From an uncultured Gammaproteobacteria bacterium (GTDB lineage Bacteria; Patescibacteriota; Microgenomatia; UBA10105; UBA927): a DNA stretch of 64,000 bases. Shown here one piece after another: positions 38,412 to 57,945 of the stretch. The position numbers were made by a program, and so were the translations under genes. The stretch lies in NCBI GenBank assembly GCA_964361785.1, contig CAYIBX010000003.1, positions 4,769 through 68,768 of the forward strand, read 5' to 3'. The notes below the pieces were generated by a model. It had not been told where the DNA came from, ran no database searches, and was given only the letters and a program-made list of their open reading frames with translations. Each line of letters begins with the position of its first letter. Within the stretch, counting starts at the first letter, position 1.

Positions 38412-40283
38412 TTATGTGACGGTTTCGACGGTAAACACTGGGCGATTGGTTGATGGGGGCGCGGGCACAGCAGGCGCTTGTGGTTCTAGTTTTTTCACTG
38501 CGTCTTGTGGTTTGGTGGTGGCCAGCGCGTGTTCTTCTGGGCTTGCCACCACTCTCATGGCAGCATGTGCGGGACCAGCAAAAAACAATCCTTGTCCAAC
38601 GTCTGACGAGAGGAGAAGATGTTTTTCTCCTTCGGACAAGAAAAACACGTCTGCTATTTTTTCTATCGCCGCGGTTGATTGCTTTAGGAGTATCTGCATG
38701 CTGCTGTTTTGGATGATCGCGGTGCCCATGTCTGTGCCCAAGAAATCTTCGACATCTTGTGTAATTGTGGTCATCCCAAGAAAGTATTTGCGCGCGCGCT
38801 TAGCGATGCTATAGAGAAACGTAGCCGAGTCTTGATACTTCATAAGATACCACGCCTCGTCTACGATAAGAAGCCGACGTCTCTTATCGTGTCTAATTTT
38901 GTTCCAGATAAAGTCCAAGATGAGAAACATGGCAATGGGCCGTAATTCGTCTTCAAGATCGCGTATAGAGAAGACAGTAAGCTGATTGCGTATAGCGACA
39001 TTTGTTTGCTGATCAAAGATGCCCACTAAACTTCCTCGGACAAATTTTTCTATGCGGTCAGCTAACCCCTTGGCGAGGGCTTCTTCCATGCCAACGAGCG
39101 TTTTATATAGGTCTTCCATCAGCGGCGGCTCCTTACTGTGGGTTTCAGGATCAGGAGTAATGCCTTTTTGTTTATAGGTTAAAATGAGCGCGCGATCCAA
39201 AAGCGCATCTTCAGAGGGCGTTAATTTTCCCATAACGACACGGAAGAATCCGTGAAGTGATAGTATTTTTTGGCTCAGTTCCCCAGCGTTTGCGTCTTGC
39301 CCCGCAAGAAGCGCTAAATCAAACGGATTTATTTTTGTTTCCGATCCGAAACGGAAGCGCACATACTCGCCGCCCATCGCAAAGGTAAGCGCTTCGTATT
39401 CATTTTCAGGATCAAGAATTATAACTTCCGTGTCAAACATCATTGATCGCATGATTTCAAGCTTAATCATAAAACTTTTACCGCTACCAGACTTACCAAA
39501 AACAACCGCGTTTGCATTCTCTAAAGTGAAGCGATCAAAGATAATTAACGAATCATTGTGCTCGTTTAGCCCATATAATATTCCTTCGTTGGCGGTAAGT
39601 TCTGAAGTGGTAAACGGAAAAGTTGTAGCGAGTGACGTTGTGTCCATGTTTCGTGTGACCATGAGCCTATCTTTACCCATAGGGAGGGTTGTTTTAAATC
39701 CCTCTTCCATCTGAAGTACCGCCTTTTTAGTGACGATAAGAAGTGATCCCAAAGTTGCCTCTACTTGGTTGGTGGTTTTATCAAGGTCTTCTTTAGATTT
39801 TGCCGGTATCGTGACGTAGAGTGCAAATTGGAAAAATCGTTCTGACCCCTTTGCTAATTCTTGTTGAAGCCCCAAGGCATCTTCAAGCGCCACCTGAATG
39901 GAAGGCTCTATCACGCGACCGCGTTTAAGATCTGATTGTATGGTGGCTTCCATTTCTCCCACCTTGCGTTTTAAACTTTCAAGCACTTCTTCTGATCGAG
40001 TGGGGTAGATGTACATAGAAATGTTTAGCGTATGGTTAAATGATATAAGAGGCTCTAACCAATTAGCAGAAACAAATCGAGGATAGCCAGCAGTAAACAG
40101 TGTTCTGTAGTGCCAATCGCCTATCGTTACATCGTTGAAATCTACCTCAATTGCCGGAGGAGATATGACGTCCAAGATGGAGATTGATTCCTCAGTAGTA
40201 GCAGTGGTGACTGAAATTTTATTGCCAGCTTGGGTTTTTGTAAATGTACCAAGAAGTGATGATAAAAGCGTGTTATTTGACAT
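38412..40283 (-). CDS. virB4: type IV secretion/conjugation ATPase VirB4 (TrbE/PrgJ family)
   Basis: Walker A 'GKSGSGKS', Walker B 'LLIVDEAWYLM' and an N-terminus '...TAGYPRFV' typical of VirB4. The start was moved to 'MSNNTLL'. Confidence 0.85.
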   Translation of the reverse strand: MSNNTLLSSLLGTFTKTQAGNKISVTTATTEESISILDVISPPAIEVDFNDVTIGDWHYRTLFTAGYPRFVSANWLEPLISFNHTLNISMYIYPTRSEEVLESLKRKVGEMEATIQSDLKRGRVIEPSIQVALEDALGLQQELAKGSERFFQFALYVTIPAKSKEDLDKTTNQVEATLGSLLIVTKKAVLQMEEGFKTTLPMGKDRLMVTRNMDTTSLATTFPFTTSELTANEGILYGLNEHNDSLIIFDRFTLENANAVVFGKSGSGKSFMIKLEIMRSMMFDTEVIILDPENEYEALTFAMGGEYVRFRFGSETKINPFDLALLAGQDANAGELSQKILSLHGFFRVVMGKLTPSEDALLDRALILTYKQKGITPDPETHSKEPPLMEDLYKTLVGMEEALAKGLADRIEKFVRGSLVGIFDQQTNVAIRNQLTVFSIRDLEDELRPIAMFLILDFIWNKIRHDKRRRLLIVDEAWYLMKYQDSATFLYSIAKRARKYFLGMTTITQDVEDFLGTDMGTAIIQNSSMQILLKQSTAAIEKIADVFFLSEGEKHLLLSSDVGQGLFFAGPAHAAMRVVASPEEHALATTKPQDAVKKLEPQAPAVPAPPSTNRPVFTVETVT

Positions 40284-40938
40284 GTGTCTCCTTTTTGATA
40301 ATAAGACGTGATATGTCAGGCGGGGGAGACCCAGCGTTGTATGCAGAAAAGTAGAGCTTGATAAGTTGTTCGGTAGAAAGCTGTGAGGCGCGAAGCCCCA
40401 CACGCGTTAAAAGTCGCACCAAATGATCCTTTTTGGGAATAAGTACTATTTCTGCGCGATCTAAGATGTATTTTTTTTCAAACGGAAGACCTGATTTTTT
40501 TGTATTAAAAAGCGCTGACGCAGAAATTCCAAGTTCCACAGCAGTAAACGGGAGGACGATATAAAATTTTTTATCTAGCACCACCTTTTCTTTGACCATT
40601 GAAGCCACGAATGAACGATAACTATGAATGCTTTTTTGAAGCTTTGGATTTTTTTGAGTTTTTTCTTTTTCTTCAAGAAGCCCTAAGTATGCAGATATGT
40701 CTTTGTGTATGGTTTGGATAATAAGCTGTATGGGAAACGAAAGCGAATTTAAGAGTCCAGCGTAAGAATAGATGATTGCATCTTGCTCCTTTTCTGATAA
40801 TAACCCAAAATTTACGGCAGTTGTTGCTATGACTAGCGCCACTGATCCGTCAGAAAAAAGGATGAGGTCGCGATCCACGTCAGCAATCTCGGTGAAAAGT
40901 TGTGTGGAGGAACGGATGGGTGAGATTGGGTTTGTCAT
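40273..40938 (-). CDS. hypothetical T4SS-associated protein
   Basis: 221-aa ORF with an 11-nt overlap with virB4 and a 4-nt gap from the upstream PrgI-like gene. No transmembrane segment or motif was recognised. Confidence 0.45.
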   Translation of the reverse strand: MTNPISPIRSSTQLFTEIADVDRDLILFSDGSVALVIATTAVNFGLLSEKEQDAIIYSYAGLLNSLSFPIQLIIQTIHKDISAYLGLLEEKEKTQKNPKLQKSIHSYRSFVASMVKEKVVLDKKFYIVLPFTAVELGISASALFNTKKSGLPFEKKYILDRAEIVLIPKKDHLVRLLTRVGLRASQLSTEQLIKLYFSAYNAGSPPPDISRLIIKKETHVK

Positions 40939-40941: not shown

Positions 40942-42189
40942 TTACATTGGTGGTTTACCAAAAATGTCTTGCGCGATTTTATCGCGCGTTACCTGTTTTT
41001 GACTTTTGGCAATTATTTCTAATGCTGGTACTACAGACCCGTTTAGCGTTACCTGCGCGCGATCAAAGGTAAAGCGCCCTCGTGGATCTTCAATTTCTAT
41101 GACATAGACGCCATTTGGTAGTGGTGTGGATGCCGCAAGTTGTCCTAATTTGTTGGTTTTTAACGCTCGCATAGGGATGCCGTCGGCGTTTGTAACCGTA
41201 ATAAGAATGGCAGGAAGAAATCCTCCCGCACCGTCTTTTACGATACCCGTAATGACGTTTGGAACACTGGTAAATCGCGGGATGCCAGCTCGCACCCCCG
41301 CATCTATGGAACTGAAAGGGCGCACAGTAGGCGCGCTGTTTGTGATTGATGCGACAAGGTCTTTTTCTTCTGCATTGGTGGCTTTTTTTGTGGAGGACGT
41401 GTTTTCAATTTGTCTTTTGAGACGGATAAGCTCGTCGTCTGTGTGCGTTTTTTCTTTGAGCACATTGGTCAACTGCGCTTGTAATTCAAGCACACGATCA
41501 TCCGTGACGTTTTTTGTGGAAAGCTGGTTGCGAAGTGCGGCGACTGCCGCTTCTAATTCTTGTATGTGATGGGTGTCTACAGGAGCCTGTGCGGGCCCAG
41601 CCAGGGGCTGGTCAGCCTTTGGCTGAGGTTCAGGTGGTTTTACCCCTGTGACAGACCTCGTCGTTGGCGTTACCCCTTGTGACGGATGAGAAGGGGTCGT
41701 AAAAAATCCCAATACCTGATCGATAAAGGATGTTGGTTTATGTGAGGAGATGATTTTTGGCGTTGCCGTGAGCGATGGTGGCGCATAAATATGTGAGACT
41801 GATGGTTGTGTGGGCGACACGAGAACTGTAACCCCTTGTGTTCCTTGTGGAGGCGTTGTAGGCGGCATTTTTGATATTTTTGGAGCTGCGATAATCGGTG
41901 CGTGACCCTTTTGCCAAATATATTGCGTCGGACTATAAATACTTTTGAAAAAAGAAAATACCCAGACATCCATAGGTCGTTCTTCTATAGGAACAAACGC
42001 AAATCCTACACCGAGTAAGGCAAATCCGGCAGCAAGAGGCCATGTGAAGAAAAAAGGCAAGGGCAACTTGTATGAAATAATTGCCAAGACGCCCCCAGCA
42101 CACAAGTACCCAAATTGCTTTAAGGTCATGTCGCCGACTAAGCGAAATTGAAATGTGGTAACGTTTTGAGGAACTGGATGTTGCTCCAT
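40942..42189 (-). CDS. PrgI/VirB3-like two-TM protein fused to a Pro/Thr-rich linker, a coiled coil and a C-terminal beta-rich domain
   Basis: 'FQFRLVGDMTLKQFGYLCAGGVLAIISYKL' matches the PrgI-family motif (FGLTxRQLxYLxxG). It is followed by two transmembrane helices, a 'PPTTPPQGTQG...' linker and a C-terminal 'VYVIEIEDPRGRFTF'. Confidence 0.55.
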   Translation of the reverse strand: MEQHPVPQNVTTFQFRLVGDMTLKQFGYLCAGGVLAIISYKLPLPFFFTWPLAAGFALLGVGFAFVPIEERPMDVWVFSFFKSIYSPTQYIWQKGHAPIIAAPKISKMPPTTPPQGTQGVTVLVSPTQPSVSHIYAPPSLTATPKIISSHKPTSFIDQVLGFFTTPSHPSQGVTPTTRSVTGVKPPEPQPKADQPLAGPAQAPVDTHHIQELEAAVAALRNQLSTKNVTDDRVLELQAQLTNVLKEKTHTDDELIRLKRQIENTSSTKKATNAEEKDLVASITNSAPTVRPFSSIDAGVRAGIPRFTSVPNVITGIVKDGAGGFLPAILITVTNADGIPMRALKTNKLGQLAASTPLPNGVYVIEIEDPRGRFTFDRAQVTLNGSVVPALEIIAKSQKQVTRDKIAQDIFGKPPM

Positions 42190-42313
42190 ATAACCATTGT
42201 AGGAATGGATGTGACATGTGACAAGGGGCACAAAGCGCATCAGGACCGTGAAAACTCGTATTTTAATGTTTCACGAACACGGAGAATTTTTTCACGTATG
42301 ATAAGATAGATGC

Positions 42314-44488: not shown

Positions 44489-44751
44489 TACACCTGATTA
44501 TGCGTTCCGATGTCATAGAATATGACAATATCAGAGCGGTCGCGCTCAAAAATGATGCGTATATCTCCTGTAACAGAGAATGATCACAAATCCCCCTTTG
44601 TTCCTTTAAGGTGATGAACACGAAGCAACGGGTGGCTGGCGTTGTTGAGGAAGAGCTGGATACGACGGTTGACGCGCTTAGAAAGTTGTGAGTCGTGCTG
44701 GATTCTTTGGCGATAGGCCTTGCGGTACCGCGGGTGCAGATGAATAATCAT
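44485..44751 (-). pseudogene. RelE/ParE-family toxin interrupted by an in-frame TGA
   Basis: Not in the ORF track. The minus-strand translation is MIIHLHPRYRKAYRQRIQHDSQLSKRVNRRIQLFLNNASHPLLRVHHLKGTKGDL-[TGA]-SFSVTGDIRIIFERDRSDIVIFYDIGTHNQVY, giving 88 aa in total with a RelE/ParE-like C-terminus. The ATG overlaps the antitoxin stop (ATGA). Confidence 0.6.
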
Positions 44752-45032
44752 GTATTAAGATAGCGCATCATGTCTTTTACGTTGGTAAATTCCTTCGTTT
44801 TTACTTTTTTGGACTTAATTTCATCAATCATTTTGTTATAGCGATGGATCGCGCGTGTAGAAAGTTGAATTTTTGGAGGCTCAAACGTCACGCGGTGTAT
44901 TCCCGTTGCCATGCCAGAGAGAAACACCCTCACCGCTTCTTGTAAAGAAGAAAAACCTTGAGAGCGAACTGCGATAGTCGCGTCGTCACGCAATTTTCTA
45001 TTCATAGGAACCTGAAGGATTGTGTTGTTCAT
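44748..45032 (-). CDS. RelB/DinJ-like ribbon-helix-helix antitoxin
   Basis: 'LRDDATIAVRSQGFSSLQEAVRVFLSGMA' resembles RelB/DinJ, and the gene is coupled to the downstream RelE-like ORF. Confidence 0.6.
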   Translation of the reverse strand: MNNTILQVPMNRKLRDDATIAVRSQGFSSLQEAVRVFLSGMATGIHRVTFEPPKIQLSTRAIHRYNKMIDEIKSKKVKTKEFTNVKDMMRYLNT

Positions 45033-45097
45033 ATAATATAATTATAACAGTTTGGTAGTGGATGTCAACGCAGTGGAATTGGTATAATACGTTTTGT

Positions 45098-45661
45098 ATG
45101 AACATCGTATTGTTTGGGGGCGCGTTTAACCCGCCGCATTTAGGGCATCTTCAGATAGCACAACAAGTGTTGGATTTTACTCCCACTGACCAGGTGTGGC
45201 TTCTTTCCAATTACGGACAAATACCACCCAAAACGGATATGGCATCAGCCAGTGATCGTCTCGCTATGACAAAAATGCTTGAGACGAAACGGATAAAAAT
45301 ATGTGATCTTGAGATTGTGCACAAACTCTCTGGAGACACGATTGAGCTTCTTACGTTTTTACCACCAGAGCATGTGTATCACTTTTTAATTGGGAGCGAT
45401 TGGATTTCACGAATGGATGAGTGGGGCGACTGGAGGGCGCTTCTTAATAAATTGCCTTTCTATGTTTTCCCAAGACAAGGATATTCGTATGCGCCATTGC
45501 CAAGTGGAATGACGGTGGTTTCTGATCCGCTTCTTACCGTAACAGATATTTCATCAACCAAAATTAGAGAACGTGTAAAACGAGGATTGCCCATCGATAC
45601 ATTTGTCCCTTTGGGAATAGAGGAGTACATGAAAAAGCATAGATTATATTTACCTCGCTGA
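45098..45661 (+). CDS. nadD: nicotinate-nucleotide adenylyltransferase
   Basis: 'LFGGAFNPPHLGHL' is the (H/T)xGH nucleotidyltransferase motif. The start was chosen downstream of a TATAAT box. Confidence 0.8.
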   Translation: MNIVLFGGAFNPPHLGHLQIAQQVLDFTPTDQVWLLSNYGQIPPKTDMASASDRLAMTKMLETKRIKICDLEIVHKLSGDTIELLTFLPPEHVYHFLIGSDWISRMDEWGDWRALLNKLPFYVFPRQGYSYAPLPSGMTVVSDPLLTVTDISSTKIRERVKRGLPIDTFVPLGIEEYMKKHRLYLPR

Positions 45662-45705: not shown

Positions 45706-48700
45706 ATGGCAGGAGAAGAATTATCCAGAAGAATTGCTGAGGCTGCGAAAAAAGCAGCAGAGCAAGCTACGCAACAAAAGGCTGAGCAGCCACAACCTGT
45801 CGAAAACGCTCCCACAGAAAATGCAGCACCAAACGATGTGCATGAAGTACCTGCCGAGCGCATGGTTGAATTTACCAATAAAGTGACACAAGGTGTGCCA
45901 GAAGCTGCGCAAAAAATAATTGGAGCAGGTGAGTATCCCAAAGATGAGCGCGTGTTTTCTATCGTCGAGTCGCTTCTTGTGGCAGACGAGGCGATGCTTT
46001 CAGACAGCGCATACATGCGTACGATTGGAGAGAAACTAGCGACCGTTGTAAACGAGACAGGATACTTTAGCGACACAGGGGTTGAAGCACGTAAATATCT
46101 TAATCGTATTATTGCAGAAAATCCAAGTTTGGAGGATCTGCGTTTACGAGCCATGCCGGAGGTTTCTGGAGTATCTGGGTTACAAGATCAACCCGAAGAA
46201 TTATCAGGGGTCACTGACCCAGAGTATAAAGAAGTAGTTAAACAGCTTTACGACGAGCCAAACGAATCAATTCTTAAGGACACTTCTATTGGGAAAGAAC
46301 TGCAGAATTTGCAGTTTAGGTTAGAAGTTGATCCTAATTCCTTGTTTCGCGATCAGCACATGATTGACGGTGTGGTGACGCGGATGGTGATAGCGGGGCA
46401 GAAAGATGGCCTTGACGCGAAAATTGTACGTGAAGGGGTGAATAGAGCACGGGCGCTTGAAGCATGGGTGGGTGAGAGGTTGGAGGCGGAAGATACGCGA
46501 GGCATTATCAGATGGTCAGAAGTGAAAAATGATGCACCTAAAGGGGTTGAGCATGTTGATAATCAAGCATTTATGTTTCGAGACATTACTAAAGATGAAA
46601 TAGATAAGTATTTCAAACGAGGCGCCGAGGGAGAAGCAGACTGGTACTTTAACTTTATAGATCAAATTTATTCATTGGGGAGAGAAGAGTCGCGACCCGG
46701 CTTAACGCACGAGCAGCGTTTTCAAGAGTTTAAAGATTATCTAGTGTGGAAGTATGGCGACGAGTATCATTTGGCAGTCCAGCTGTATCAAAAACATTGG
46801 GACAGCCGTGGTCAGTTTGAGTACGCGGTAAAAGGCTTGATGTATAACCCTGGTGACGTAAAAGATCGTTTGAAAGCCATGTCGCTTTTGACTGGCGCAG
46901 ACCTAGACCATTTATACAAAAATTTTAATAACTCAAACGTTGCTTATAGTTTGTACGAAGGCGTCATGTTTGAGACGATGGCAGAAAAGCGTAGAAAGTA
47001 TGGAGAAGCAATTAAATATTTAGGCGAAGAGGTGACGTGGGACAAAAAACATATTAAAAGAGAGGATTTGCTTAAAGAATTAAAGAGTAAACACCGAGAA
47101 GAGGGGTTTGATCCCGAGACGGGCAAAAGGACGCAGAGCTCATTGTCTGTCGAAGACCAAAAGCTCATGTTTGAAATTCAACATCAAAACGATTTGGCGG
47201 CAGAGGGCGTAATGCTTTGGGACGATGACGTGCAAAGTTACACAGAAATGCACATAACGCTTTCCAAGCTACAGACTGAACGTGAGGGTCTTATGAAGAA
47301 AAAAAATTCAGGTGAGCCGCTTTCGGAAAAAGAAATGGATCAACTGCATGAAGTAGATAGGAAATATCAAATATATGCACATCGCGAACACATGCTCAAC
47401 GAAAATTTTACTCAAGAGTTGTTACAGACAAGAGGCTTGTCTCCCGTTGATATAGAAGTTCGCAAACGTCTCACTGAGTACTACAAAAGCACGCATAGTG
47501 GACAAGAACCGCCAGAGTATGAAGTGCGTATGGCGTTGTGGGCCGCTCGTACCGCCATGATTGGGTCAGGACGCATGGCAATGATTGGGTCCATGATGTC
47601 TATAGGGCCTCGTGAGTCTGGATACACATCTTCATCAGGCAAGGACGTTATGCGCGCACCGGCATTTGAAGATTTGCAGCGCATTTTTAATCCGGAAGTG
47701 TTTGCCTCTCGTTTTAGTATTGGTGGCGATTTTGGGAAAGTAGCACGGCAAGTGTTCAGAAAGAATTTGTTAAACACCAAGGGTATAGATGAGAAAAAGC
47801 AGGGATGGCTTAAAAAAACATGGAATGGATTGTTTAGTGGTGGAGAAGAGTCGCACGGGAAATTGAGTTATACGAAAGAATGGGGACATGCTAAAGAGCA
47901 TGAGCACGATGCCGCAAGGCGAGCCGCCATGGAAACAGCAGAATTTGCAGAAGACGCAAGCGGGATATCGTTTAGTGAATTGCTCGGCCCTGGGTTTATG
48001 AACTCGGGAGGATTTTACGATGGTACGGGATGGCGGTTAGAAAAAGGAGTGTTTGATGAATTGCGAAATAAAGTGATGGACATGAGAAAGCTGCCTGAAG
48101 GAGCGACACTTCTGGATAACCAAGCGCTCTCCATTCAGTTGTTGACGGCTAGTAACGCCGAAGAGCGTAGACCAATACTTGATCGGATGCTTAGAAGAAA
48201 CCCATCAAAATTCTTGGAGCTTTTGCAAGAAGATTCAGAAAAAATATTACAAAAGCATAATGTGACGCATGAAGAGTGGGGACAGTTTAAAGAAGCATTA
48301 TCTTTGGCTGAATTAAAGATAGCACATGAAAAAGAATGGCAGTTCGTCAGAATTGATATGGCAGACAAGAAAGATTACGATGCTCTTATTGCTCCATTTT
48401 TAAAAACCTTGGGACTTGAAGATATAGGACGCCAAGAAAATTTACGTCAAGTGTTGGTCGACATGCAGTCGGTACTGTATGAAAAACGAACAGTTGAGAC
48501 TGGAGGCGGGAAGGTGTTTCACACAAAAATGGATGCAGTCGCTGAATTAAAGCTCCCATTGACTATGTCCATGACAGATTTTGATTGGAAGGAAAGTAAC
48601 TTTTATCAATTAGGAACAGTCGCAATGCATCGTAGAATTCGTGATGTAGGATCTCAAATGCGCGCGCGCGACGCAATTTTGGGCATTATATCCAATCAAG

Positions 48701-49311
48701 AAATGGTGCTTTCACCCGTTGACTACTCAAAGACACTTGAAAAGTTTCGGGAAGTGAGGGAGGCGATTATAGACTATTCCGGCGCAGACGCGGCTGAGGC
48801 GACGGTGAAAGAGTTAGCCCGCGTCTTTTTGGAGATGAACAGACACAAGCACATAAATCTCGAGTGGATACCATTTGATTTGGGAACGAAAGCTTTTAAA
48901 GAAATGGCTGAGTGGGATTTGCGATGGTTGAAAAATGCATGGATTTTAACACCATTTAAGCTTGCCGCTGGGAAAGAGCGGTGGAATAAATTAATGGATG
49001 ATAAGGTGATGCACTGGCCACATTCATTCGGTGAATACATATCATATGCAGTGCGTTACACAGGCAGCCATGCCAATGCCTATGATGAGGCGAAAATGGA
49101 AGAGATTATTTCCGGCATGGAACAAATGGGTTTATTTATCAATCACCATGAGTATGGACATGATTTGCGAAACGAGTTTAAGACGCGTTTAGGGTTTCGG
49201 TTGTGGAGCCAAGTACGTAAATATTGGTTTGTGCTTTTTGCAATCACCGTTGCTACTGCTGCCACGCAGGCAGTGACAGAAGAAGGTAAAAAGGATGGAG
49301 GAGGACATTAA
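45706..49311 (+). CDS. very large (1201 aa) hypothetical protein with a C-terminal transmembrane anchor, inside the T4SS-like locus
   Basis: Single uninterrupted ORF. It has an acidic/Lys-rich helical N-terminus, the motif 'HHEYGH' near the C-terminus and a final hydrophobic segment 'YWFVLFAITVATAATQA'. No known domain was recognised. Confidence 0.55.
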   Translation: MAGEELSRRIAEAAKKAAEQATQQKAEQPQPVENAPTENAAPNDVHEVPAERMVEFTNKVTQGVPEAAQKIIGAGEYPKDERVFSIVESLLVADEAMLSDSAYMRTIGEKLATVVNETGYFSDTGVEARKYLNRIIAENPSLEDLRLRAMPEVSGVSGLQDQPEELSGVTDPEYKEVVKQLYDEPNESILKDTSIGKELQNLQFRLEVDPNSLFRDQHMIDGVVTRMVIAGQKDGLDAKIVREGVNRARALEAWVGERLEAEDTRGIIRWSEVKNDAPKGVEHVDNQAFMFRDITKDEIDKYFKRGAEGEADWYFNFIDQIYSLGREESRPGLTHEQRFQEFKDYLVWKYGDEYHLAVQLYQKHWDSRGQFEYAVKGLMYNPGDVKDRLKAMSLLTGADLDHLYKNFNNSNVAYSLYEGVMFETMAEKRRKYGEAIKYLGEEVTWDKKHIKREDLLKELKSKHREEGFDPETGKRTQSSLSVEDQKLMFEIQHQNDLAAEGVMLWDDDVQSYTEMHITLSKLQTEREGLMKKKNSGEPLSEKEMDQLHEVDRKYQIYAHREHMLNENFTQELLQTRGLSPVDIEVRKRLTEYYKSTHSGQEPPEYEVRMALWAARTAMIGSGRMAMIGSMMSIGPRESGYTSSSGKDVMRAPAFEDLQRIFNPEVFASRFSIGGDFGKVARQVFRKNLLNTKGIDEKKQGWLKKTWNGLFSGGEESHGKLSYTKEWGHAKEHEHDAARRAAMETAEFAEDASGISFSELLGPGFMNSGGFYDGTGWRLEKGVFDELRNKVMDMRKLPEGATLLDNQALSIQLLTASNAEERRPILDRMLRRNPSKFLELLQEDSEKILQKHNVTHEEWGQFKEALSLAELKIAHEKEWQFVRIDMADKKDYDALIAPFLKTLGLEDIGRQENLRQVLVDMQSVLYEKRTVETGGGKVFHTKMDAVAELKLPLTMSMTDFDWKESNFYQLGTVAMHRRIRDVGSQMRARDAILGIISNQEMVLSPVDYSKTLEKFREVREAIIDYSGADAAEATVKELARVFLEMNRHKHINLEWIPFDLGTKAFKEMAEWDLRWLKNAWILTPFKLAAGKERWNKLMDDKVMHWPHSFGEYISYAVRYTGSHANAYDEAKMEEIISGMEQMGLFINHHEYGHDLRNEFKTRLGFRLWSQVRKYWFVLFAITVATAATQAVTEEGKKDGGGH

Positions 49312-50977: not shown

Positions 50978-51310
50978 TTATTGAAATTCAGGGACGGTAA
51001 ATGTGGTGATGCTCTCAATTCCTGTAAATCTGCCGATAAGATTTATAATAAGATACGCCGCAGACATGATGATAAGTCCCATAATGGCTTGGCTTATAGT
51101 GCCTCGTGCCTGTTCGAGCTTTTTAGGGTCCCCTGATGAGAAGAGAAAGTTAAATCCACCGACCAAGAGCATAAGAAAGAGCGCAATGCCCCCAAACGCA
51201 ACTACCGCCCTCACGATGTTTTCAAAGAGCGGGCCAAGACAAGAAAGTGTCGCTACGTCCTCAGAGTTTGGTACGCCTTTAGCAAAACAAGCAGTATCCC
51301 ATGCAGCCAT
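50978..51310 (-). CDS. VirB2/TrbC-like pilin paralog 1
   Basis: Two-helix hydrophobic protein containing 'LLVGGFNFLFSSGDPKKLEQARGTISQAIMGLIIM', which shares the family motif GGF..TSGGD.KL..A...I..A..GL. Confidence 0.6.
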   Translation of the reverse strand: MAAWDTACFAKGVPNSEDVATLSCLGPLFENIVRAVVAFGGIALFLMLLVGGFNFLFSSGDPKKLEQARGTISQAIMGLIIMSAAYLIINLIGRFTGIESITTFTVPEFQ

Positions 51311-51329
51311 AAAGAGAGTATATCAAAAA

Positions 51330-51662
51330 TTAGTACGGCTTGGGGAAGTTTAAGCTTCCGCCGATGATCTGCACGCCCAAGAAGTTTTGGACGAGATTCA
51401 TGATGGCCCATGCAGCTCCTACGATGATAAGACCAACAATTGCATGGGTAATTTTATTTCTGGCTTCTTCCATGCCTGCCTTGTCGCCGCCAGAGGTAAT
51501 CCACTTTATGCCACCCAGCAGTAAATATAAGAAAGCCAAAAGTGAAGCGATGATAAGCGTCGTGCCGACAAGCGCTGAAATAAGCTGACCAATGTCAGTA
51601 ATTTTGACGACATCTGTAGGCTGTTTGATTTCGAGTTTCGCTTGCGCAAATATTTTTTCCAT
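51330..51662 (-). CDS. VirB2/TrbC-like pilin paralog 2
   Basis: 'LLLGGIKWITSGGDKAGMEEARNKITHAIVGLIIV'. Confidence 0.6.
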   Translation of the reverse strand: MEKIFAQAKLEIKQPTDVVKITDIGQLISALVGTTLIIASLLAFLYLLLGGIKWITSGGDKAGMEEARNKITHAIVGLIIVGAAWAIMNLVQNFLGVQIIGGSLNFPKPY

Positions 51663-51739
51663 AGATGTAATTATATCCTACTTACCATTCTTGCGCAAGA
51701 AATTGATCCTTGTCAAGGACCATCGTTAGTATAGGCACA

Positions 51740-52087
51740 TTAGCTTCCAACGGTGGGAATAGGAATGTTTGGAAAATCAATGCCAATAAATTGGCTGACC
51801 AATGTAGTGATAGCCCAGACCGTGCCGACGATGATAAGGCCTACTAACGCGTTGGTAATTTTGTCTCTAGCCGATGTAAGTTTTGTTTTATCCCCTCCTG
51901 ATGTAATCCAATCAAATCCGCCCAGAAGTAAATAGAGAAAAGCGATGATAAAACAAAGTATCATGATAGCCCCTATTACACCGCCCAATACTGCTCCGAG
52001 AGCAGAAGCGCCAGCTTCTGTGCCGCCGCTTCCAAGACTGCCAGGGAGAACGGGGTTTGTAATTTGTGTGAGCAAACGATTGGTCAT
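51740..52087 (-). CDS. VirB2/TrbC-like pilin paralog 3
   Basis: 'LLLGGFDWITSGGDKTKLTSARDKITNALVGLIIV'. Confidence 0.6.
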   Translation of the reverse strand: MTNRLLTQITNPVLPGSLGSGGTEAGASALGAVLGGVIGAIMILCFIIAFLYLLLGGFDWITSGGDKTKLTSARDKITNALVGLIIVGTVWAITTLVSQFIGIDFPNIPIPTVGS

Positions 52088-52092
52088 AGTGT

Positions 52093-52464
52093 TTATTGTG
52101 AGAGAGAATCCATAATGCCACCAGGATTTGATAGTGTGAAATCGACACCAAAGAATTGACCAGCAAGAGAAAGTATTGCCCAGCCTACAACCACGACAAG
52201 AAGACCAATAAGTGAGTTTGTTATCCGGTCGCGAGCTGATTGCAGCTTGGCTTTATCGCCTCCTGATGTGATCCAGTTAAATCCGCCGATAAGAAATTGA
52301 AAAATAAACCATATAAATCCTGAGATGGTCATGAAGCCTATTATGGAAGAAACGAGTCGCGATATGTTTATAAGGCCTTCGGTGCCGTCGGAGACATTGG
52401 CAAATGGACCGAGCCCACCGCCTTCACCGATTCGCCCTAATTCTTGTGCAAATATTGTTTTCAT
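52093..52464 (-). CDS. VirB2/TrbC-like pilin paralog 4
   Basis: 'FLIGGFNWITSGGDKAKLQSARDRITNSLIGLLVV'. Confidence 0.6.
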   Translation of the reverse strand: MKTIFAQELGRIGEGGGLGPFANVSDGTEGLINISRLVSSIIGFMTISGFIWFIFQFLIGGFNWITSGGDKAKLQSARDRITNSLIGLLVVVVGWAILSLAGQFFGVDFTLSNPGGIMDSLSQ

Positions 52465-52466
52465 TA

Positions 52467-52823
52467 TTATGGACTGACTATTTTCGGATTGAGTATAAAC
52501 GTTGCGTCATTAAAGAGAAGTTTTCCCACCACAGCCGCGAGAGCAAAAGACCCCACGATCACGACAAGTCCTAATAGCGAATTCCAAATTTTATCCCACG
52601 CAGAGTTTAGTGCCTTTGTGTCTCCGCCAGCGTTCATATATTGAAAGCCTGCGATAATAAAATTAAAGAGCGCTAAAATACCGCCCCCTACAAATACAAG
52701 GCGTAATATATTTGTGATAAGCAGTCCAAATCCACCGAAAACATTTGCGTAACCGCCGATTAAAGGGCTGGTGACCGATCCTACTATGTCATCTTCTGCA
52801 AAGATGCGTTCTATAAGCGTCAT
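52467..52823 (-). CDS. VirB2/TrbC-like pilin paralog 5 (divergent)
   Basis: 'FIIAGFQYMNAGGDTKALNSAWDKIWNSLLGLVVI'. Confidence 0.55.
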   Translation of the reverse strand: MTLIERIFAEDDIVGSVTSPLIGGYANVFGGFGLLITNILRLVFVGGGILALFNFIIAGFQYMNAGGDTKALNSAWDKIWNSLLGLVVIVGSFALAAVVGKLLFNDATFILNPKIVSP

Positions 52824-52827
52824 ATCG

Positions 52828-53133
52828 TTATGGTATCACAGGGTTTAATATCTGGATACCAGTGAGCGTTTCTATAAGTTGTATTATCCAAAATGATGCA
52901 AAAATAAGAAGGAGCCCAACAACGGCTCCTGTGAGCGCCGCTTTTCCTTTTTCTGCGTGTTTAGGGTTGCCAGCGGAAGTGATGATTTGAAATCCGCCAA
53001 AGACGATCATAAACAATGTTACTACCCCAGCGATTACAAATACGTTTGACACAATGACTTTTACAAATCCGCCAAACGTTGTTATGGTGGAGGGGGAAAG
53101 CTCTGAGAGTTCGACTGCGTGTACAATGTTCAT
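52828..53133 (-). CDS. VirB2/TrbC-like pilin paralog 6 (divergent)
   Basis: 'VFGGFQIITSAGNPKHAEKGKAALTGAVVGLLLI'. Confidence 0.55.
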   Translation of the reverse strand: MNIVHAVELSELSPSTITTFGGFVKVIVSNVFVIAGVVTLFMIVFGGFQIITSAGNPKHAEKGKAALTGAVVGLLLIFASFWIIQLIETLTGIQILNPVIP

Positions 53134-53187
53134 ATTTTAAGTGTACGAAAACTCGCACAGAATCTCAAGATCTTGTATACTCACCGC

Positions 53188-53727
53188 ATGGACGACGTCA
53201 CCCTCGTTTCTCAGCTTCTTAAAAAGGATCGTCGCAGCGCTGGCATCTTTTACCAGACGTACGCGCCGAAGATTAAAAGGTACGTGCATGCAAAGGTAGG
53301 AGTATACGAAGACGCAGAAGATTTGGTGCAAGATATTCTTTTTTCGTTTCTTGAGGCTGCTCGTGATTTTCGTGGGAATAGCAGTATACAGACATACCTT
53401 TACTCTATAGCACATCACAAAGTGATTGATTATTATCGTAAGAAAAAAATTAAACAACTCGTGTTTTCTCAAATGCCACAATTGGAATCGTTGATTTCTC
53501 CGCTTCTTGATCCACAAGCGCAGCTTGATGCGACACTGGTGAGTGAAAAGATACAGCACGCGTTGGGAACATTGCTCCCCATTCATCGCACTGTGTTGCT
53601 TCTCAAATACCTTGACGATGTTTCAGTATCGGGTATAGCAAAGCAGTTGTCCATAACGCTCAAAAGCGCTGAGTCACGATTGTTTCGTGCACGACGAGCC
53701 TTTGTAGCATCATTTCTTTCGTTATAA
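53188..53727 (+). CDS. ECF-type RNA polymerase sigma-70 factor
   Basis: Region 2 'EDLVQDILFSFLEAARDFRG...TYLYSIAHHKVIDYYRKK' and region 4 'IHRTVLLLKYLDDVSVSGIAKQLSITLKSAESRLFRAR'. Confidence 0.8.
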   Translation: MDDVTLVSQLLKKDRRSAGIFYQTYAPKIKRYVHAKVGVYEDAEDLVQDILFSFLEAARDFRGNSSIQTYLYSIAHHKVIDYYRKKKIKQLVFSQMPQLESLISPLLDPQAQLDATLVSEKIQHALGTLLPIHRTVLLLKYLDDVSVSGIAKQLSITLKSAESRLFRARRAFVASFLSL

Positions 53728-54001: not shown

Positions 54002-54619
54002 ATGCTCGTTGCGCTCCTTCAATCAGGTTTTGCGTTTTTTCGTCACTTTGTGGGAATTATCATTTCGCCCTACGAGACCTATAGGGATATCGAAAAACGT
54101 GGTCGTATAGGAGAGATGGTGTATATCGGTCTTTTAGTTGGGCTGTATTTTTCTCTTTCAAGTGTGGTAAAAATAGCTTCATTTCACCCATTACTTCTTT
54201 CTCGGTACGCATTCGTATTATTCGCTTCAGCACTGAGTGGATTTGGGCTCATCGTTTCAGTGCTGGTTTTGACTGGGCGATTATTAGGGCGACAGACAAG
54301 TATCGGACGCATAAGTCTTTTGTGGGCGTATACGCTTGTGCCGACGGTTGTATGGTTTTTATGTACGTCACTTTTATATATATTTATTCCTCCACCTAGA
54401 ACCACCAATATCTCTGGAGTAGCCTTAAGCATCGTGTACCTTGTTGTTTCAGCAATGATTTTTTGGTGGAAATTGACGCTTTCGTATCTTGCGTTGCGGT
54501 TTGGTTTGAAGCTTGATTTTAGCAAAATTTTGATTTTCGTTTTGGTTTCAGTACCCATACTTATTCTATGGTCATACATGATGTATGCCATTGGCATATA
54601 TAAGGTACCATTTTTATGA
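54002..54619 (+). CDS. Yip1-like polytopic membrane protein
   Basis: 205-aa ORF with five transmembrane segments and an N-terminal 'SPYETYRDI' resembling Yip1/DUF1282. Confidence 0.4.
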   Translation: MLVALLQSGFAFFRHFVGIIISPYETYRDIEKRGRIGEMVYIGLLVGLYFSLSSVVKIASFHPLLLSRYAFVLFASALSGFGLIVSVLVLTGRLLGRQTSIGRISLLWAYTLVPTVVWFLCTSLLYIFIPPPRTTNISGVALSIVYLVVSAMIFWWKLTLSYLALRFGLKLDFSKILIFVLVSVPILILWSYMMYAIGIYKVPFL

Positions 54620-55755
54620 AATTGCGATCAGCACTATCAGTAAAATCTCGTCGCGAAGAAGTAGAGAAAGAGACTCGTGTATTGTTAACCAACATTGGGA
54701 CGTTTAGCGTCGATGAGAATGTGGCGAGCAAAAGAAATTGTGAAAACATGATTGGCGTCGCTCAAGTGCCGTTGGGTATTGCAGGACCCCTCGCACTGTT
54801 AACTGTTAAAGGTGAATTGTTAAATGTTTATCTTCCTCTCGCAACGACTGAAGGAGCGTTGGTGGCGTCGGTTAGTCGCGGCTGCAAGGCGATAACGGAG
54901 TCTGGAGGAGCAGGTGTAGATAGTTACCGTGTTGGGGCCACCCGCGGTCCGGTTTTTAAGGTCAAGAATTTGCATGAAAGCGATGTATTTAATAAATTTT
55001 TGGAAGAACACTTCGAGAGTTTGCAAAAAATTACAAAGACAACCTCAAACCACTTAACACTTACAAAATATATGGATCGCGGAGTCGGTCGGTATAGATA
55101 TGTACGATTTGTGTTTGACACAGAAGACGCCATGGGCATGAACATGGTAACAATTGCGACACAAAAACTAGTTGAATATATTGAGCTCCATACGTCTTCA
55201 CGATGTATTTCCTTGGCGGGAAATTACGACGTCGACAAAAAACCTTCGTGGCTCAATGTTATTGAAGGACGAGGTATAAAAGCGTGGGCGGAGGTGACGC
55301 TTCCGTCAAAAATACTCAAAGACGTTTTAAAAACGACTGCTCAAAAATTTTATGACGTGTGGCTTTCAAAGTGCATGATTGGCAGTGCCATGGCAGGATC
55401 GATGGCATTTAATGCCCAGTTTGCAAATATAATTGCTGCCGTATTTTTAGCGACGGGACAGGATCTTGGGCATGTGGGCGAGGCAAGCTTGGGTGTGACA
55501 ACCGCTGAGGTAGTGAATGGAAAAGACTTATATGTAAGTATATATCTTCCTGATCTTATGGTAGGTATCGTGGGTGGAGGCACAGGCCTTGCAACACAGA
55601 AAGAGGCGTTATCGATTGTGAGAGCCGCAAATAGTAAACAATTTGCTGAAATAATTGCAGGTGCGGTGCTAGCAGGAGAAATTTCATTATTAGCGTCGCT
55701 TAGTGAGGGGACGTTAGCAAAAGCACATCAAGAACTAGCAAGAGGAAAGAGATAA
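54616..55755 (+). CDS. hmgA: HMG-CoA reductase, class I (archaeal-type)
   Basis: 'ENMIGVAQVPLGIAGPL', 'EGALVASVSRGCKAI' and 'DAMGMNMV' are conserved HMGR motifs. Confidence 0.85.
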   Translation: MKLRSALSVKSRREEVEKETRVLLTNIGTFSVDENVASKRNCENMIGVAQVPLGIAGPLALLTVKGELLNVYLPLATTEGALVASVSRGCKAITESGGAGVDSYRVGATRGPVFKVKNLHESDVFNKFLEEHFESLQKITKTTSNHLTLTKYMDRGVGRYRYVRFVFDTEDAMGMNMVTIATQKLVEYIELHTSSRCISLAGNYDVDKKPSWLNVIEGRGIKAWAEVTLPSKILKDVLKTTAQKFYDVWLSKCMIGSAMAGSMAFNAQFANIIAAVFLATGQDLGHVGEASLGVTTAEVVNGKDLYVSIYLPDLMVGIVGGGTGLATQKEALSIVRAANSKQFAEIIAGAVLAGEISLLASLSEGTLAKAHQELARGKR

Positions 55756-55756
55756 T

Positions 55757-56800
55757 ATGATCGGCATCATTTCATACGGCACATATATTCCTTTGTATCG
55801 TTTAGCAGTAGCAGAGATTGCAAAAGCGTGGCACAAAGAAGCGAAAGAAATAGAACAAGCGCTTGGGGTTATAGAAAAGGCCGTGCCATCCTATGATGAA
55901 GACGCGGTGACCATTGCAACTGAAGCTGCGCTTTCAGCGTATAGGAATACTATTGTTAAGCCAGAAGACACAGATGTTTTATTAGTTGGTAGCGAAAGTC
56001 ATCCGTATGCCGTGAATCCAACGGCCACAATTGTAGGGGAATTTGTAGGGTTTAGCCATCAGTATTTAGCATCAGACATGCAATTTGCATGTAAAGCAGG
56101 AACTGCTGCTGTGCAATCGATTGCAGGCTTGGTTTCTGCAGGACATGCGCGAACTGGTCTAGCTATTGGAGCAGATACTGCACAGAGTAAACCTCACGAT
56201 GTACTTGAGTACGCTTCTGCCGCTGGTGGAGCGGCGTTCCTTATTGGTAAAGAAAATCTTGTAGTAGAGATGTTGGCGGACACATCGTTTTCATCTGACA
56301 CTCCAGATTTTTGGCGACGTGATGGCATACGTTATCCGTCGCACGCTGGGCGATTTACCGGAGAACCTGCATATTTTACGCATGTGATGGGAGCCGCAAG
56401 ACAATTATTGAATATGTCGAAATTGAACCCCAAAGATTTTAAGTATTGCGTGTTTCACATGCCAAACGGAAAATTTCCTCGGGATGTTGCCAAGCGTTTA
56501 GGATTTACCGACAGTCAACTTGTTCCCTCGCTTATTGTTGAGTCTATCGGCAACTCGTATAGCGCTACAGCACTTTTAGGATTAGCAGCGGTTTTGGATA
56601 TCGCAAAGCCAAATGAGAAGATATTTATGGTGTCGTATGGATCAGGGGCTGGAAGTGACGGATTTATTTTTCGCGCGACAAAAGCACTTCCAGCTTTGCA
56701 AAAAAAACGGCTGGTCTCACACGATCGGGTGATTGATCATATCAATCGTCGTATGCCGATTGACTATCTGACGTATTTACAAAAGACTCATAAAATATGA
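55757..56800 (+). CDS. HMG-CoA synthase (archaeal-type, DUF35-partnered)
   Basis: Thiolase-fold condensing enzyme whose N-terminus 'IGIISYGTYIPLYRL' is typical of archaeal HMGCS. It lies between hmgA and a thiolase gene. Confidence 0.75.
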   Translation: MIGIISYGTYIPLYRLAVAEIAKAWHKEAKEIEQALGVIEKAVPSYDEDAVTIATEAALSAYRNTIVKPEDTDVLLVGSESHPYAVNPTATIVGEFVGFSHQYLASDMQFACKAGTAAVQSIAGLVSAGHARTGLAIGADTAQSKPHDVLEYASAAGGAAFLIGKENLVVEMLADTSFSSDTPDFWRRDGIRYPSHAGRFTGEPAYFTHVMGAARQLLNMSKLNPKDFKYCVFHMPNGKFPRDVAKRLGFTDSQLVPSLIVESIGNSYSATALLGLAAVLDIAKPNEKIFMVSYGSGAGSDGFIFRATKALPALQKKRLVSHDRVIDHINRRMPIDYLTYLQKTHKI

Positions 56801-57945
56801 AACCAGTTATATCAGTTATTGGTGTTGCTACGACACAATTTGGAGAATTGTGGGGCGTGTCACCGCGTCGATTGGCACAAGACGCAGTTACGAGAGCGCT
56901 TCACGACGCGAATATACAACATTCTGCTGTGCAAGCGCTGTTTGTGGGAAACATGCTTTCAGGGATGCTTGGCGGTCAAGAACACTTAGGCGCTTTTTTT
57001 GCGGATGAACTTCATATGTTAGTTCCTGCGTTTAAAATTGAAGGCGCGTGTGCATCAGGGGGACTTTCAGTGCATGCAGCGGTCAACGCATTAATGTCTG
57101 GCCAGTATGAGACAGTATTAGTATTGGGAGTAGAGAAGATGACGGATCATAAACCAGAAGACGTGGCGACTGCCCTTATGGGAGCTGGATCAGACGAAGA
57201 GCGCACGGCGGGAATGACATTTCCAGGATTATATGCGTTGCTTTCGAGCATGCATATGGAAGAATACGGTACGACGTTAGAGCAGTTAGCATCTGTAGCG
57301 GTGAAAAATCATTATCACGCAACTCTCAATCCTAATGCACAGTTTCATAATACGATTACCGTCGAACAGGTGTTAAAAAGCACGTGTATAGCAGATCCGT
57401 TGCGACTTTTGGATTGTTCACCAATTTCTGATGGGGCTTCGGCTGTGATTCTTACGACAGTTCCTAATAACGCCGTTAGAATACTTGCGTCAACCGTTGG
57501 CACAGATTCATTAGGTCTTGCGCGGAGGAAGAGCCTTACCAGCTTGCAGGCGACAAAAGATGCCGCTAATCGCGCGTACACGCTTGCAAAAGTCAAACCG
57601 TCTGACGTCGATGTAGCAGAAGTGCATGATTGCTTTACGATTGCAGAAATATTAGCGATGGAAGATTTGGGATTTTTTGCCAAAGGAAAGGCGGCCGCGG
57701 CAATTGAAAGAGGAGAGACGAGACTTGGGACATCAAAACATTTAGTGGTCAATCCGTCAGGAGGGCTCAAAGGTTGTGGTCATCCGGTGGGGGCAACGGG
57801 TGTCAAACAGATTGTAGAGCTGGTTGAGCAGTTGCGCGGTGTAGCTGGCGCGCGTCAAGTGAAAAATGCAAAAATTGGATTAGCACAAAATGTAGGAGGA
57901 AGCGGTGCAACGGCTGTTGTACACATATTATGCAATCACCAGTGA
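56797..57945 (+). CDS. acetyl-CoA acetyltransferase (thiolase, archaeal-type)
   Basis: Active-site cysteine motif 'GACASGGLSVHAAVNALMSG' and a C-terminal 'GHPVGATG'. Confidence 0.8.
   Translation: MKPVISVIGVATTQFGELWGVSPRRLAQDAVTRALHDANIQHSAVQALFVGNMLSGMLGGQEHLGAFFADELHMLVPAFKIEGACASGGLSVHAAVNALMSGQYETVLVLGVEKMTDHKPEDVATALMGAGSDEERTAGMTFPGLYALLSSMHMEEYGTTLEQLASVAVKNHYHATLNPNAQFHNTITVEQVLKSTCIADPLRLLDCSPISDGASAVILTTVPNNAVRILASTVGTDSLGLARRKSLTSLQATKDAANRAYTLAKVKPSDVDVAEVHDCFTIAEILAMEDLGFFAKGKAAAAIERGETRLGTSKHLVVNPSGGLKGCGHPVGATGVKQIVELVEQLRGVAGARQVKNAKIGLAQNVGGSGATAVVHILCNHQ

Follow-up and report, generated by a model that had tools for sequence, protein, structure and literature searches.

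A conserved 1,201-residue orphan protein paired with a candidate channel protein at a type IV secretion-like locus of Microgenomatia

We analyzed a 64,000-nucleotide stretch of DNA (hereafter the window; GenBank assembly GCA_964361785.1, contig CAYIBX010000003.1, positions 4,769 to 68,768 of the forward strand) from a genome titled "uncultured Gammaproteobacteria bacterium" and placed by GTDB in Microgenomatia (Patescibacteriota; UBA10105; UBA927). Our subject is a gene for a 1,201-amino acid (aa) orphan protein, for which we use the working name BIG, and which lies among genes of a type IV secretion system (T4SS), tail-to-tail with the gene of a polytopic membrane protein, hereafter its partner. 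BIG is probably a new, undescribed component of a known and poorly understood system, the apparatus by which one group of ultrasmall parasitic bacteria exploits its hosts.

The T4SS-like locus

An earlier note, made from the sequence of the window alone, had described the surroundings of BIG as a T4SS-like locus. The gene content listed below, from a VirB4-like ATPase with a VirB4/TraG P-loop through TrsD-like, PrgI/VirB3-like and VirD4-like proteins to six T4SS_pilin genes, bears this out.

32911-35652, + strand: dnaA and dnaN, just upstream of the T4SS block
35664-36221, − strand: 185-aa membrane protein
36212-38404, − strand: 730-aa peptidase-like membrane protein
38412-40403, − strand: VirB4-like ATPase (VirB4/TraG P-loop)
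40273-40938, − strand: TrsD/TraC-like protein
40942-42240, − strand: PrgI/VirB3-like protein, 432 aa
42314-44488, + strand: VirD4-like coupling protein (TrwB_AAD_bind, TraG-D_C, DUF87)
44748-45032, − strand: 94-aa open reading frame (ORF), present in this window only, no family match
45062-45661, + strand: NadD-like nucleotidyltransferase (CTP_transf_like), between VirD4 and BIG
45706-49311 (stop included), + strand: BIG ORF, 1,201 aa, ATG to TAA
49318-50925, − strand: the partner, a 535-aa polytopic membrane protein with ~8-10 transmembrane segments, ending in '...GEGQGEEH'
50978-53133, − strand: six divergent VirB2-like T4SS_pilin genes (PF18895)
53188-53727, + strand: ECF-type sigma factor (Sigma70_r2, r4_2)
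54002-54619, + strand: Yip1
54616-61422, + strand: mevalonate pathway genes

The T4SSs of Patescibacteria, or candidate phyla radiation (CPR), have been surveyed by Quinonero-Coronel et al. 2025 (PMC12102498) and are described there as MPF-FATA-related, chromosomal, located near dnaA, furnished with pilin arrays, and without relaxase. The locus studied here has the same character, with TrsD and PrgI genes next to VirB4, a pilin array, and a setting on chromosomal contigs of 1.2–1.3 Mb, and the annotated ORFs between 30 and 62 kb include no relaxase. The cumulative GC skew has its minimum at ~34–36 kb, and the replication origin appears to lie immediately next to the T4SS block, an arrangement known from reports on many Patescibacteria. 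Shared with the surveyed catalogue are VirB4, TrsD, PrgI, VirD4, arrays of pilin genes, a peptidase that takes the VirB1 role, nearness to dnaA, and an elusive VirB6; as a difference, we found no mention, in the sections and by the terms consulted, of a ~1,200-aa family or of its pairing with a polytopic protein.

The earlier note had placed BIG between the VirD4-like gene and VirB6. This order holds, although BIG does not adjoin VirD4, the NadD-like gene and a small antisense ORF standing between them. The neighbor on the other side is polytopic and in the right position for VirB6, but homology to VirB6 could not be shown: the partner had no match in Pfam or NCBIfam, its profile search against PDB sequences was empty, and no Pfam domain was found in the best 120 of its 435 homologues. 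Its topology of 8–10 transmembrane segments and its place beside the pilins in the majority of longer loci are those of VirB6/TrbL proteins, and by this position and topology it is a candidate VirB6. It is also the sole multi-spanning candidate in the T4SS block, whose other proteins have ≤2 transmembrane segments. VirB6 is scarcely detectable in Microgenomatia, which the survey ascribes to extreme divergence (PMC12102498).

A conserved protein family

BIG is a real gene under strong purifying selection. As the earlier note had stated, it is a single ORF of ~3.6 kb; it runs from ATG to TAA and encodes a protein with a mass of 137.9 kDa and an isoelectric point of 5.5. A word-indexed search returned 41 homologues, all full-length at ~1,200 aa and 45–100% identical, and a repeat with wide alignment recovered the same 41. 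An exhaustive profile search of 1.84 billion representatives enlarged the family to 108 clusters (50% identity), of which 78 had E < 1e-30; near-full-length members range from 992 to 1,590 aa, and most align across most of the profile. Against three relatives at ~80% identity, the ratio of non-synonymous to synonymous substitution rates (dN/dS) was ~0.06, a rough value with dS near saturation. An 'M..EEL' motif is kept at the N-terminus across homologues, which supports the annotated start codon. A scan for promoters and terminators around the gene gave results no better than shuffled sequence. Cluster look-ups returned 'hypothetical protein' as the sole kind of name.

The informatively named sources of the family are all Candidatus Gottesmanbacteria or Woesebacteria (Microgenomatia, CPR). 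Among 17 related loci from GTDB genomes, six are titled Candidatus Gottesmanbacteria and one Woesebacteria, the rest being generic or 'uncultured Gammaproteobacteria'. The family has not been described before and, judged by these source names, is apparently restricted to Gottesmanbacteria-type Microgenomatia (CPR/Patescibacteria). The metagenome-assembled contigs L004, L006, L007, L013, L017, L018, and L019 are titled 'uncultured Gammaproteobacteria bacterium', and these titles are apparent taxonomic mislabels.

The composition of the protein is also largely as had been noted: its N-terminus is acidic, Lys-rich, and predicted to be helical, and Trp is frequent (23 residues, or 1.9% versus 1.08% in the other proteins of the window). 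Cys is absent from the BIG of the window and ~8-fold depleted across the family. VirB4, VirD4, and TrsD of the same locus, which are cytoplasmic, are Cys-poor too, and a Cys-free composition was therefore rejected as a mark of export.

Anatomy and conserved residues

Within BIG, the following parts can be distinguished, all on the + strand:

45706..46575: N-terminal region, aa 1-290, variable (frequency of the top residue 0.19-0.33, occupancy 0.63-0.88)
46603..49185: conserved all-alpha core, aa ~300-1160, from the conservation profile and high model confidence
47635..47745: most conserved block, 'SGKDVMRAPAFEDLQRIFNPEVFASRFSIGGDFG', aa 644-680 (block conservation 0.52, the highest)
49144..49161: 'HHEYGH', aa 1147-1152, a HExxH-like string, not conserved
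49189..49278: long C-terminal helix, aa 1162-1191, a candidate for membrane tethering or for binding a partner
49279..49308: C-terminal tail 'EEGKKDGGGH', polar, rich in Gly, and His-terminal

The N-terminal region opens with a low-complexity acidic/Lys-rich start and varies in length, with extensions of up to ~+390 aa in some members; a Pfam search of six long members found no domain fused in these extensions. In distant members, profile coverage begins at about position 170–290, and the family conservation profile marks residues ~300–1201 as the conserved part. Four columns, E655, R659, F670, and G677, are invariant across 80 diverse members, and all four fall in the most conserved block, whose pattern is 'GK.VM.AP..ED..RI.NPE.F..RF.MGG'. 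D656, N662, D772, W776, R777, N805, Q806, R831, D958, R976, R977, D980, Y1024, E1031, and N1045 are near-invariant, and R669 likewise belongs to the invariant or near-invariant polar set of the core.

Two proteins of ~1,200 aa (P0143 and P0145) gave HMMER matches in their N-terminal part only. By HHalign they are co-linear with BIG, the motifs 'WR...NQxLGxQL' and 'LG..A..RR..D...AW' being aligned at probabilities of 67% and 84%, and on this profile evidence they are very divergent members of the family. Both retain the C-terminal hydrophobic helix and polar tail.

Fold and candidate functions

The earlier note had called BIG an orphan without a recognizable catalytic domain, and both statements stood up to searches by sequence and by fold. 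The protein of the window matched nothing in Pfam (E ≤ 10) or NCBIfam (E ≤ 0.1), and neither PHROGs nor PADLOC gave a match for it or for five distant members. When the sequences of the PDB were searched, the BIG sequence by itself and two profiles gave only chance matches or designed helical repeats. An AlphaFold2 model from a shallow alignment was poor, with a predicted local distance difference test score (pLDDT) of 62, and was not used for fold searching. When 80 diverse sequences were used (17–84% identity), pLDDT rose to 89.5, with a predicted template-modeling score (pTM) of 0.79 over 1,161 residues (numbering trimmed; adding 40 gives full BIG numbering). The resulting model is compact and all-alpha, with ~60 helices, three small hairpins, and a 36-residue C-terminal helix (trimmed 1122–1157), and its pTM over this length indicates that BIG would fold as a single integrated whole and not as beads on a string.

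Foldseek searches with this model returned no match at E ≤ 0.001 in the PDB (entries to April 2026) or among the viral structures of BFVD. The best PDB match had E = 0.015, probability 0.12, and a template-modeling (TM) score of ~0.07, and the top matches were generic importin/CRM1-type solenoids (TM ~0.07, E ≥ 0.015, probability ≤ 0.16). A profile self-comparison with HHalign detected no internal repeats (off-diagonal probabilities ≤ 5%).

Several known classes were considered and rejected. For an ARM/HEAT-type alpha-solenoid, internal repeats were lacking and only the insignificant importin/CRM1 matches were obtained. An SMC or other chromosome-partition protein was set aside given the lack of any P-loop or SMC match, negative PDB profiles, and the compact multi-helix body; homology to such a housekeeping protein was what the earlier note had named as grounds for abandoning its reading, and when looked for in BIG it did not appear. 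A zincin metalloprotease was rejected since HExxH is not family-wide and neither a peptidase match in Pfam nor a fold match was found, and a conjugative relaxase (MOB) since there was no relaxase match in Pfam or NCBIfam, the His strings are variable, and the Foldseek search of the PDB was empty.

The earlier note had suggested that BIG could be relaxase-like. Relaxases and pilot proteins of the MOB type do resemble it in being large, encoded beside the coupling-protein gene, and would-be clients of VirD4, but BIG differs in having no relaxase domain, no conserved HUH, no catalytic-Tyr context, and no resemblance in fold to solved relaxases or other T4SS subunits, so that this suggestion was not upheld. 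A broader possibility is that BIG is a novel nucleic-acid-handling enzyme, either standing in for the missing relaxase or processing host RNA or DNA that comes in through the T4SS, with the invariant Glu/Asp/Arg/Tyr residues of its core as the active site. This would suit the relaxase-like position by the coupling protein, as well as the invariant polar residues E655, R659, R777, R976, R977, D980, Y1024, and E1031, which cluster in motifs beyond the needs of a passive scaffold. It would also suit what is reported of the first cultivated Microgenomatia strain, an ectoparasite from which tubes that 'may be T4SS pili' reach the host, and which imports host RNA (bioRxiv 10.64898/2026.06.21.733656). 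Against such an enzyme, BIG contains no HUH, nuclease, helicase, primase, or P-loop motif or domain, Foldseek found no similarity to a solved relaxase, recombinase, or nuclease in the PDB, and the His strings HAKEH, HKH, and HHEYGH are not conserved. An all-alpha architecture of 1,200 aa is also unlike relaxases, among which we know of no precedent for it, and overall we regard an enzymatic role of this kind as improbable.

The C-terminal region

The 'HHEYGH' string, which the earlier note had read as a possible metal site, is present at aa 1147–1152. As a metal site it does not hold: HExxH is confined to the BIG of the window and its closest relatives, the family consensus at this place being 'NHPEYxxDL', so that, lacking conservation, the string does not act as a functional metal site. 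The other His strings of BIG (HAKEH, HKH) are not conserved either.

The terminal transmembrane anchor of the earlier note fared better in one respect, as a hydrophobic C-terminal helix is conserved family-wide, and less well in another, as this helix is short and only moderately hydrophobic. It consists of a conserved basic/aromatic 'R..RKYW(W/F)' collar followed by 14–18 hydrophobic residues; in the window the hydrophobic segment spans aa 1173–1188 and has a KD19 hydrophobicity of 1.42, compared with 0.8–1.9 in the family and 2.0–3.3 for the true transmembrane helices of neighboring proteins. The charges around the helix, basic before and acidic after, are kept even where the sequence diverges. 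No signal peptide or N-terminal transmembrane segment was found in BIG. Its architecture and charge distribution would fit a tail-anchored protein, the most divergent members included, but the segment is short (14–18 aa) and its KD19 of 0.8–1.9 falls below that of the true transmembrane helices nearby.

Another suggestion of the earlier note was a surface adhesin, which for a T4SS would be one analogous to PrgB. The large size of BIG and the monoderm-type T4SS locus would agree with this, and the role is unfilled, in that the survey found no canonical adhesin in CPR T4SS loci (PMC12102498). BIG, however, has no signal peptide, no N-terminal transmembrane segment, and no LPXTG or other wall anchor, its model is all-alpha without Ig-like or beta-rich domains, and the charges around the C-terminal helix fit a cytoplasmic bulk. 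A PrgB-like adhesin was rejected on the absence of an N-terminal hydrophobic segment and of LPXTG together with the all-alpha model, and we consider this role highly improbable.

Gene order and the BIG–partner pair

Conservation and synteny with T4SS genes in related genomes, proposed in the earlier note as a check, proved clearly positive. We examined 55 loci, metagenome scan included; in each that extended far enough downstream, the gene next to BIG was the partner gene on the opposite strand. For a strict count we retained de-duplicated complete gene pairs with the window among them (n = 40). In 40/40 of these distinct loci, BIG stands tail-to-tail with the partner gene, which lies on the opposite strand, encodes 432–570 aa with 8–10 transmembrane segments, and is separated from BIG by −4 to 211 bp (6 bp in the window). 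The pairing holds at ~20% identity (P0116, P0127). Six pilins follow the partner in most of the longer loci, and nearly every locus has VirD4 upstream, on the strand of BIG; the exception is L019, where VirD4 is missing from that place.

Other genes near the pair are less stable. Beyond the partner gene, HicAB instead of pilins is found in L027 and likewise for the divergent member P0143, which keeps the pairing all the same. NadD/NadE have the reverse orientation in L049 and are lacking from L042, which marks them as probable passengers, and a link of BIG to NAD metabolism through these genes was rejected on the same grounds. A Y1 transposase lies upstream of BIG in L021. The BIG–partner pair is, in short, an invariant unit that persists while nearby genes rearrange. 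The transposase of L021 is of the IS200/IS605 type and occupies positions 9003-9704 (− strand) between NadE and BIG; BIG is N-terminally extended there, to 1,590 aa.

Gene order alone leaves room for BIG to have nothing to do with the T4SS and to be a lineage-specific, membrane-associated cytoplasmic protein that serves elsewhere, for example in the envelope, in division, or in origin-proximal organisation, its place in the locus being simply inherited. The region is collinear over ~25 kb, including NadD/NadE, the ECF-type sigma factor, Yip1, and the mevalonate pathway; BIG has no homology to any T4SS component; and the partner is without demonstrable VirB6 homology, such that the two could be a separate two-gene module. 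On the other hand, the adjacency of BIG and partner outlasts every local rearrangement seen, even with different flanking genes, and the pair is sandwiched between VirD4 and the pilins in nearly all longer loci. A polytopic channel protein is a necessary part of a T4SS, and for that part the locus offers no multi-spanning candidate besides the partner. Extreme divergence is the published explanation for the scarcity of VirB6 hits in Microgenomatia (PMC12102498). Taken together, these observations make an unrelated role unlikely in our judgment.

BIG and partner also share an unusual ending. They are the only two of the 66 predicted genes of the window whose products end in His, and such tails, usually after a Gly run, occur in 69 of 101 BIG homologues and 68 of the 120 listed partner homologues. 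Across the 40 distinct loci, both proteins carry the tail in 22, neither in 10, and only one of the two in 8 (Fisher p = 0.001, with loci that are not independent). We take the shared tails as a lead, not proof, for a functional coupling of BIG and partner.

Evolutionary rates

Among close relatives, dN/dS was 0.06 for BIG, 0.07 for VirD4, 0.07 for the partner, 0.09 for PrgI, and 0.03 for VirB4. Ongoing diversifying selection on BIG was rejected on this basis, its value being like that of the neighboring machine genes. The picture changes between clades, as seen from the identity to the proteins of the window in the core clade and in distant clades:

VirD4: core 67-73%, distant 66-68%
VirB4: core 78-80%, distant 68-73%
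HMG-CoA reductase (HMGR): core 58-66%, distant 57-67%
Partner: core 47-54%, distant 35-45%
BIG: core 61-64%, distant 21-31%

In L027, the partner is still 43% identical and BIG is below HMMER detection. By these sequence comparisons, BIG appears tightly constrained within clades and remodelled between them. Non-clock-like divergence of BIG was seen relative to L021, L024, L027, and L044-L054.

In the main rival interpretation, BIG is a translocated substrate of the T4SS that VirD4 recognizes and passes through the channel into or onto the host bacterium. Its C-terminal helix would insert in the membrane of the host, with BIG serving as effector, as pilot protein, or as a factor that forms a conduit or receptor for the epibiotic interface; effector and pilot protein are roles that the earlier note had also suggested. 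The divergence of BIG is very large and clade-typed, with a comparable jump only in a pilin gene. BIG has no Sec signal and carries a conserved element at its extreme C-terminus, where T4SS translocation signals lie. Its helix is sub-threshold for the membrane of the producer itself (KD19 0.8–1.9), and transmembrane segments of proteins exported by secretion systems are reported to be sub-threshold in hydrophobicity. The family is ~8-fold depleted in Cys, and BIG is encoded downstream of the coupling-protein gene, a common place of the relaxase, the VirD4 substrate, in conjugative systems (PMC12102498). The T4SS-like tubes and host RNA uptake of the cultivated Microgenomatia strain would also suit a translocated protein (bioRxiv 10.64898/2026.06.21.733656).

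Several observations argue in the other direction. The dN/dS of BIG is as low as that of VirD4 and the channel protein, with no ongoing diversifying selection, and BIG is strictly single-copy with a fixed position and length, which is more typical of a structural part. A large compact fold (pTM 0.79) would need unfolding for transport, and Cys depletion is non-discriminating, being common to VirB4, VirD4, and TrsD. Finally, the C-terminal tail of BIG is acidic and Gly-rich, whereas VirB/D4-type translocation signals are Arg-rich. A translocated BIG is a serious possibility that we nevertheless think unlikely.

Proposed role of BIG

Our data show a real gene under constraint, how far its family extends, a fold class without any homologue, the strict pairing with the partner, and what the locus is composed of; the localisation, physical partners, and role of BIG are what we infer from them. 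The reading that we prefer, and hold tentatively, is that BIG serves the T4SS as an accessory subunit that is lineage-specific, cytoplasmic, and tethered to the membrane, and that acts with VirD4 and the channel protein. BIG would be made in the cytoplasm, given that it has no signal peptide, and the conserved C-terminal helix, with its 'RKYWW' collar, hydrophobic run, and acidic Gly-rich tail, would hold it at the membrane or at the channel protein. The helical body of ~1,150 residues could then serve as a docking or gating platform that bridges the VirD4 ATPase and the membrane protein in the VirB6 position. In doing so, BIG might perform the job of the large hydrophilic helical domains found in the 'extended VirB6' proteins of Saccharibacteria (SEML1_0011, SEML1_0013).

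This accessory-subunit reading is supported by the dN/dS of BIG, because it resembles that of T4SS machine genes, and by the BIG–partner pairing, because it survives local rearrangements even in the most divergent members. The combination of no N-terminal signal or transmembrane segment with a conserved, flanked C-terminal helix supports it as well, as do the His-terminal tails common to BIG and partner, the agreement of the locus with the published CPR T4SS, the VirD4 gene upstream on the same strand in nearly all loci, and the single integrated architecture of the model. The VirB6-position proteins of S. epibionticum offer a precedent.

In S. epibionticum, the T4SS (SEML1_0006-0019) is essential, and the proteins in the VirB6 position, SEML1_0011 (998 aa) and SEML1_0013 (1,088 aa), join a polytopic part to a helical region at the C-terminus, classified as 'ARM repeat' in ECOD, and are themselves essential in transposon sequencing (Wang et al. 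2023; Table S2 for the domains). In Saccharibacteria, the sole class tested, epibiotic growth requires the T4SS (Wang et al. 2023; PMC12857230), and a review notes that it is not known what the hydrophilic domains of 'extended VirB6' proteins do (PMC12857230). Compared by description, these systems and the present one have in common a CPR T4SS, a six-pilin array, a place between PrgI and the pilins, and a helical hydrophilic mass. In the extended VirB6 proteins, however, the helical part is a C-terminal domain of 250–300 aa, whereas BIG is a separate polypeptide of 1,201 aa, encoded convergently to a partner of ~500 aa. BIG also has no detectable repeats, and the exhaustive profile search detected no sequence similarity between the two.

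We further take the VirB6 paralogues of Rickettsiales, with their large hydrophilic domains, and the adaptor complexes of other coupling proteins to be comparable to the role proposed for BIG, and among the latter DotM, from the Legionella DotL-DotM-DotN-IcmSW complex, is presumably an analogue as a coupling-protein adaptor. DotM and the proposed BIG would share a membrane anchor, a largely alpha-helical and cytoplasmic body, action with a VirD4-type ATPase in the docking of substrates, and encoding with the T4SS, a functional analogy only. DotM differs in its N-terminal transmembrane anchors and its size of ~380 aa, and no PDB chain was significant against BIG by sequence or by fold.

Importantly, a number of points weigh against an accessory subunit. 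The tie between BIG and the T4SS comes from the genes of the locus and a monomer model, and synteny is weak evidence in this clade, where NadD/NadE, the sigma factor, Yip1, and the mevalonate genes are also held in place. BIG is convergent with its partner and hence not co-transcribed with it, and the co-occurrence of their tails tracks phylogeny. Membrane insertion is uncertain because the KD19 of the helix (0.8–1.9) lies below that of the neighbors' transmembrane helices (2.0–3.3). The family was not detectable in other CPR classes with the same T4SS, and the between-clade divergence of BIG is far above that of any other gene of the locus, which is unusual for a core machine part.

More speculatively, and rather doubtfully, BIG and partner may form a lineage-specific module that turns a conjugation-type T4SS into the feeding apparatus of Microgenomatia, with BIG either translocated as a host-membrane-inserting factor or cytoplasmic, as a platform that receives or processes host macromolecules such as RNA. 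Its fold would then be one without known relative, and the shared Gly-rich, His-terminal tails would represent a new docking or metal-binding signal.

CPR/Patescibacteria represent a large share of bacterial diversity. BIG provides a concrete target in a class whose first cultivated member reportedly contacts its host through T4SS-like tubes, as a conserved 138-kDa protein that is strictly paired with a candidate channel protein and apparently missing from the published catalogue, as far as the sections and terms consulted show (PMC12102498). Should BIG prove to be a structural subunit or an adaptor, a divergent T4SS would gain one more known part; should it prove to be translocated, a CPR T4SS would have its first candidate substrate. 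Its importance is genuine though moderate, because the family is apparently that of one lineage and its function is what we infer.

Other observations on the locus

The 94-aa ORF at 44748-45032 is preceded by a perfect sigma-70 consensus at 45068-45041 (− strand), with TTGACA, a 16-nt spacer, TATAAT, and an upstream TG. This ORF is missing in relatives, where the VirD4–NadD gap is 5–10 bp in annotated loci, and it looks like an insertion specific to the window. Between the window and L030, the dS of NadD is ~0.18 versus ~0.9–4 in all flanking genes, which may reflect a recent local exchange or an unusual codon constraint.

The 730-aa protein (36212-38404) has a weak, sub-threshold similarity to HEIGH-type metallopeptidases, and relatives have Peptidase_M23 at this place; it is the least conserved gene of the T4SS block, with no tblastn match in distant loci. 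A 149-aa minus-strand ORF (53137-53586) that overlaps the ECF-type sigma factor is probably spurious. Among the six pilins, conservation from genome to genome is by far highest in pil2 (65–98%), the others varying much more. The mevalonate set comprises HMG-CoA reductase, HMG-CoA synthase, thiolase, two GHMP kinases, and diphosphomevalonate decarboxylase; HMG-CoA reductase, the first of these genes, is at the same place in every related locus reaching that far, and the remainder of the set is seen in the called genes of four loci.

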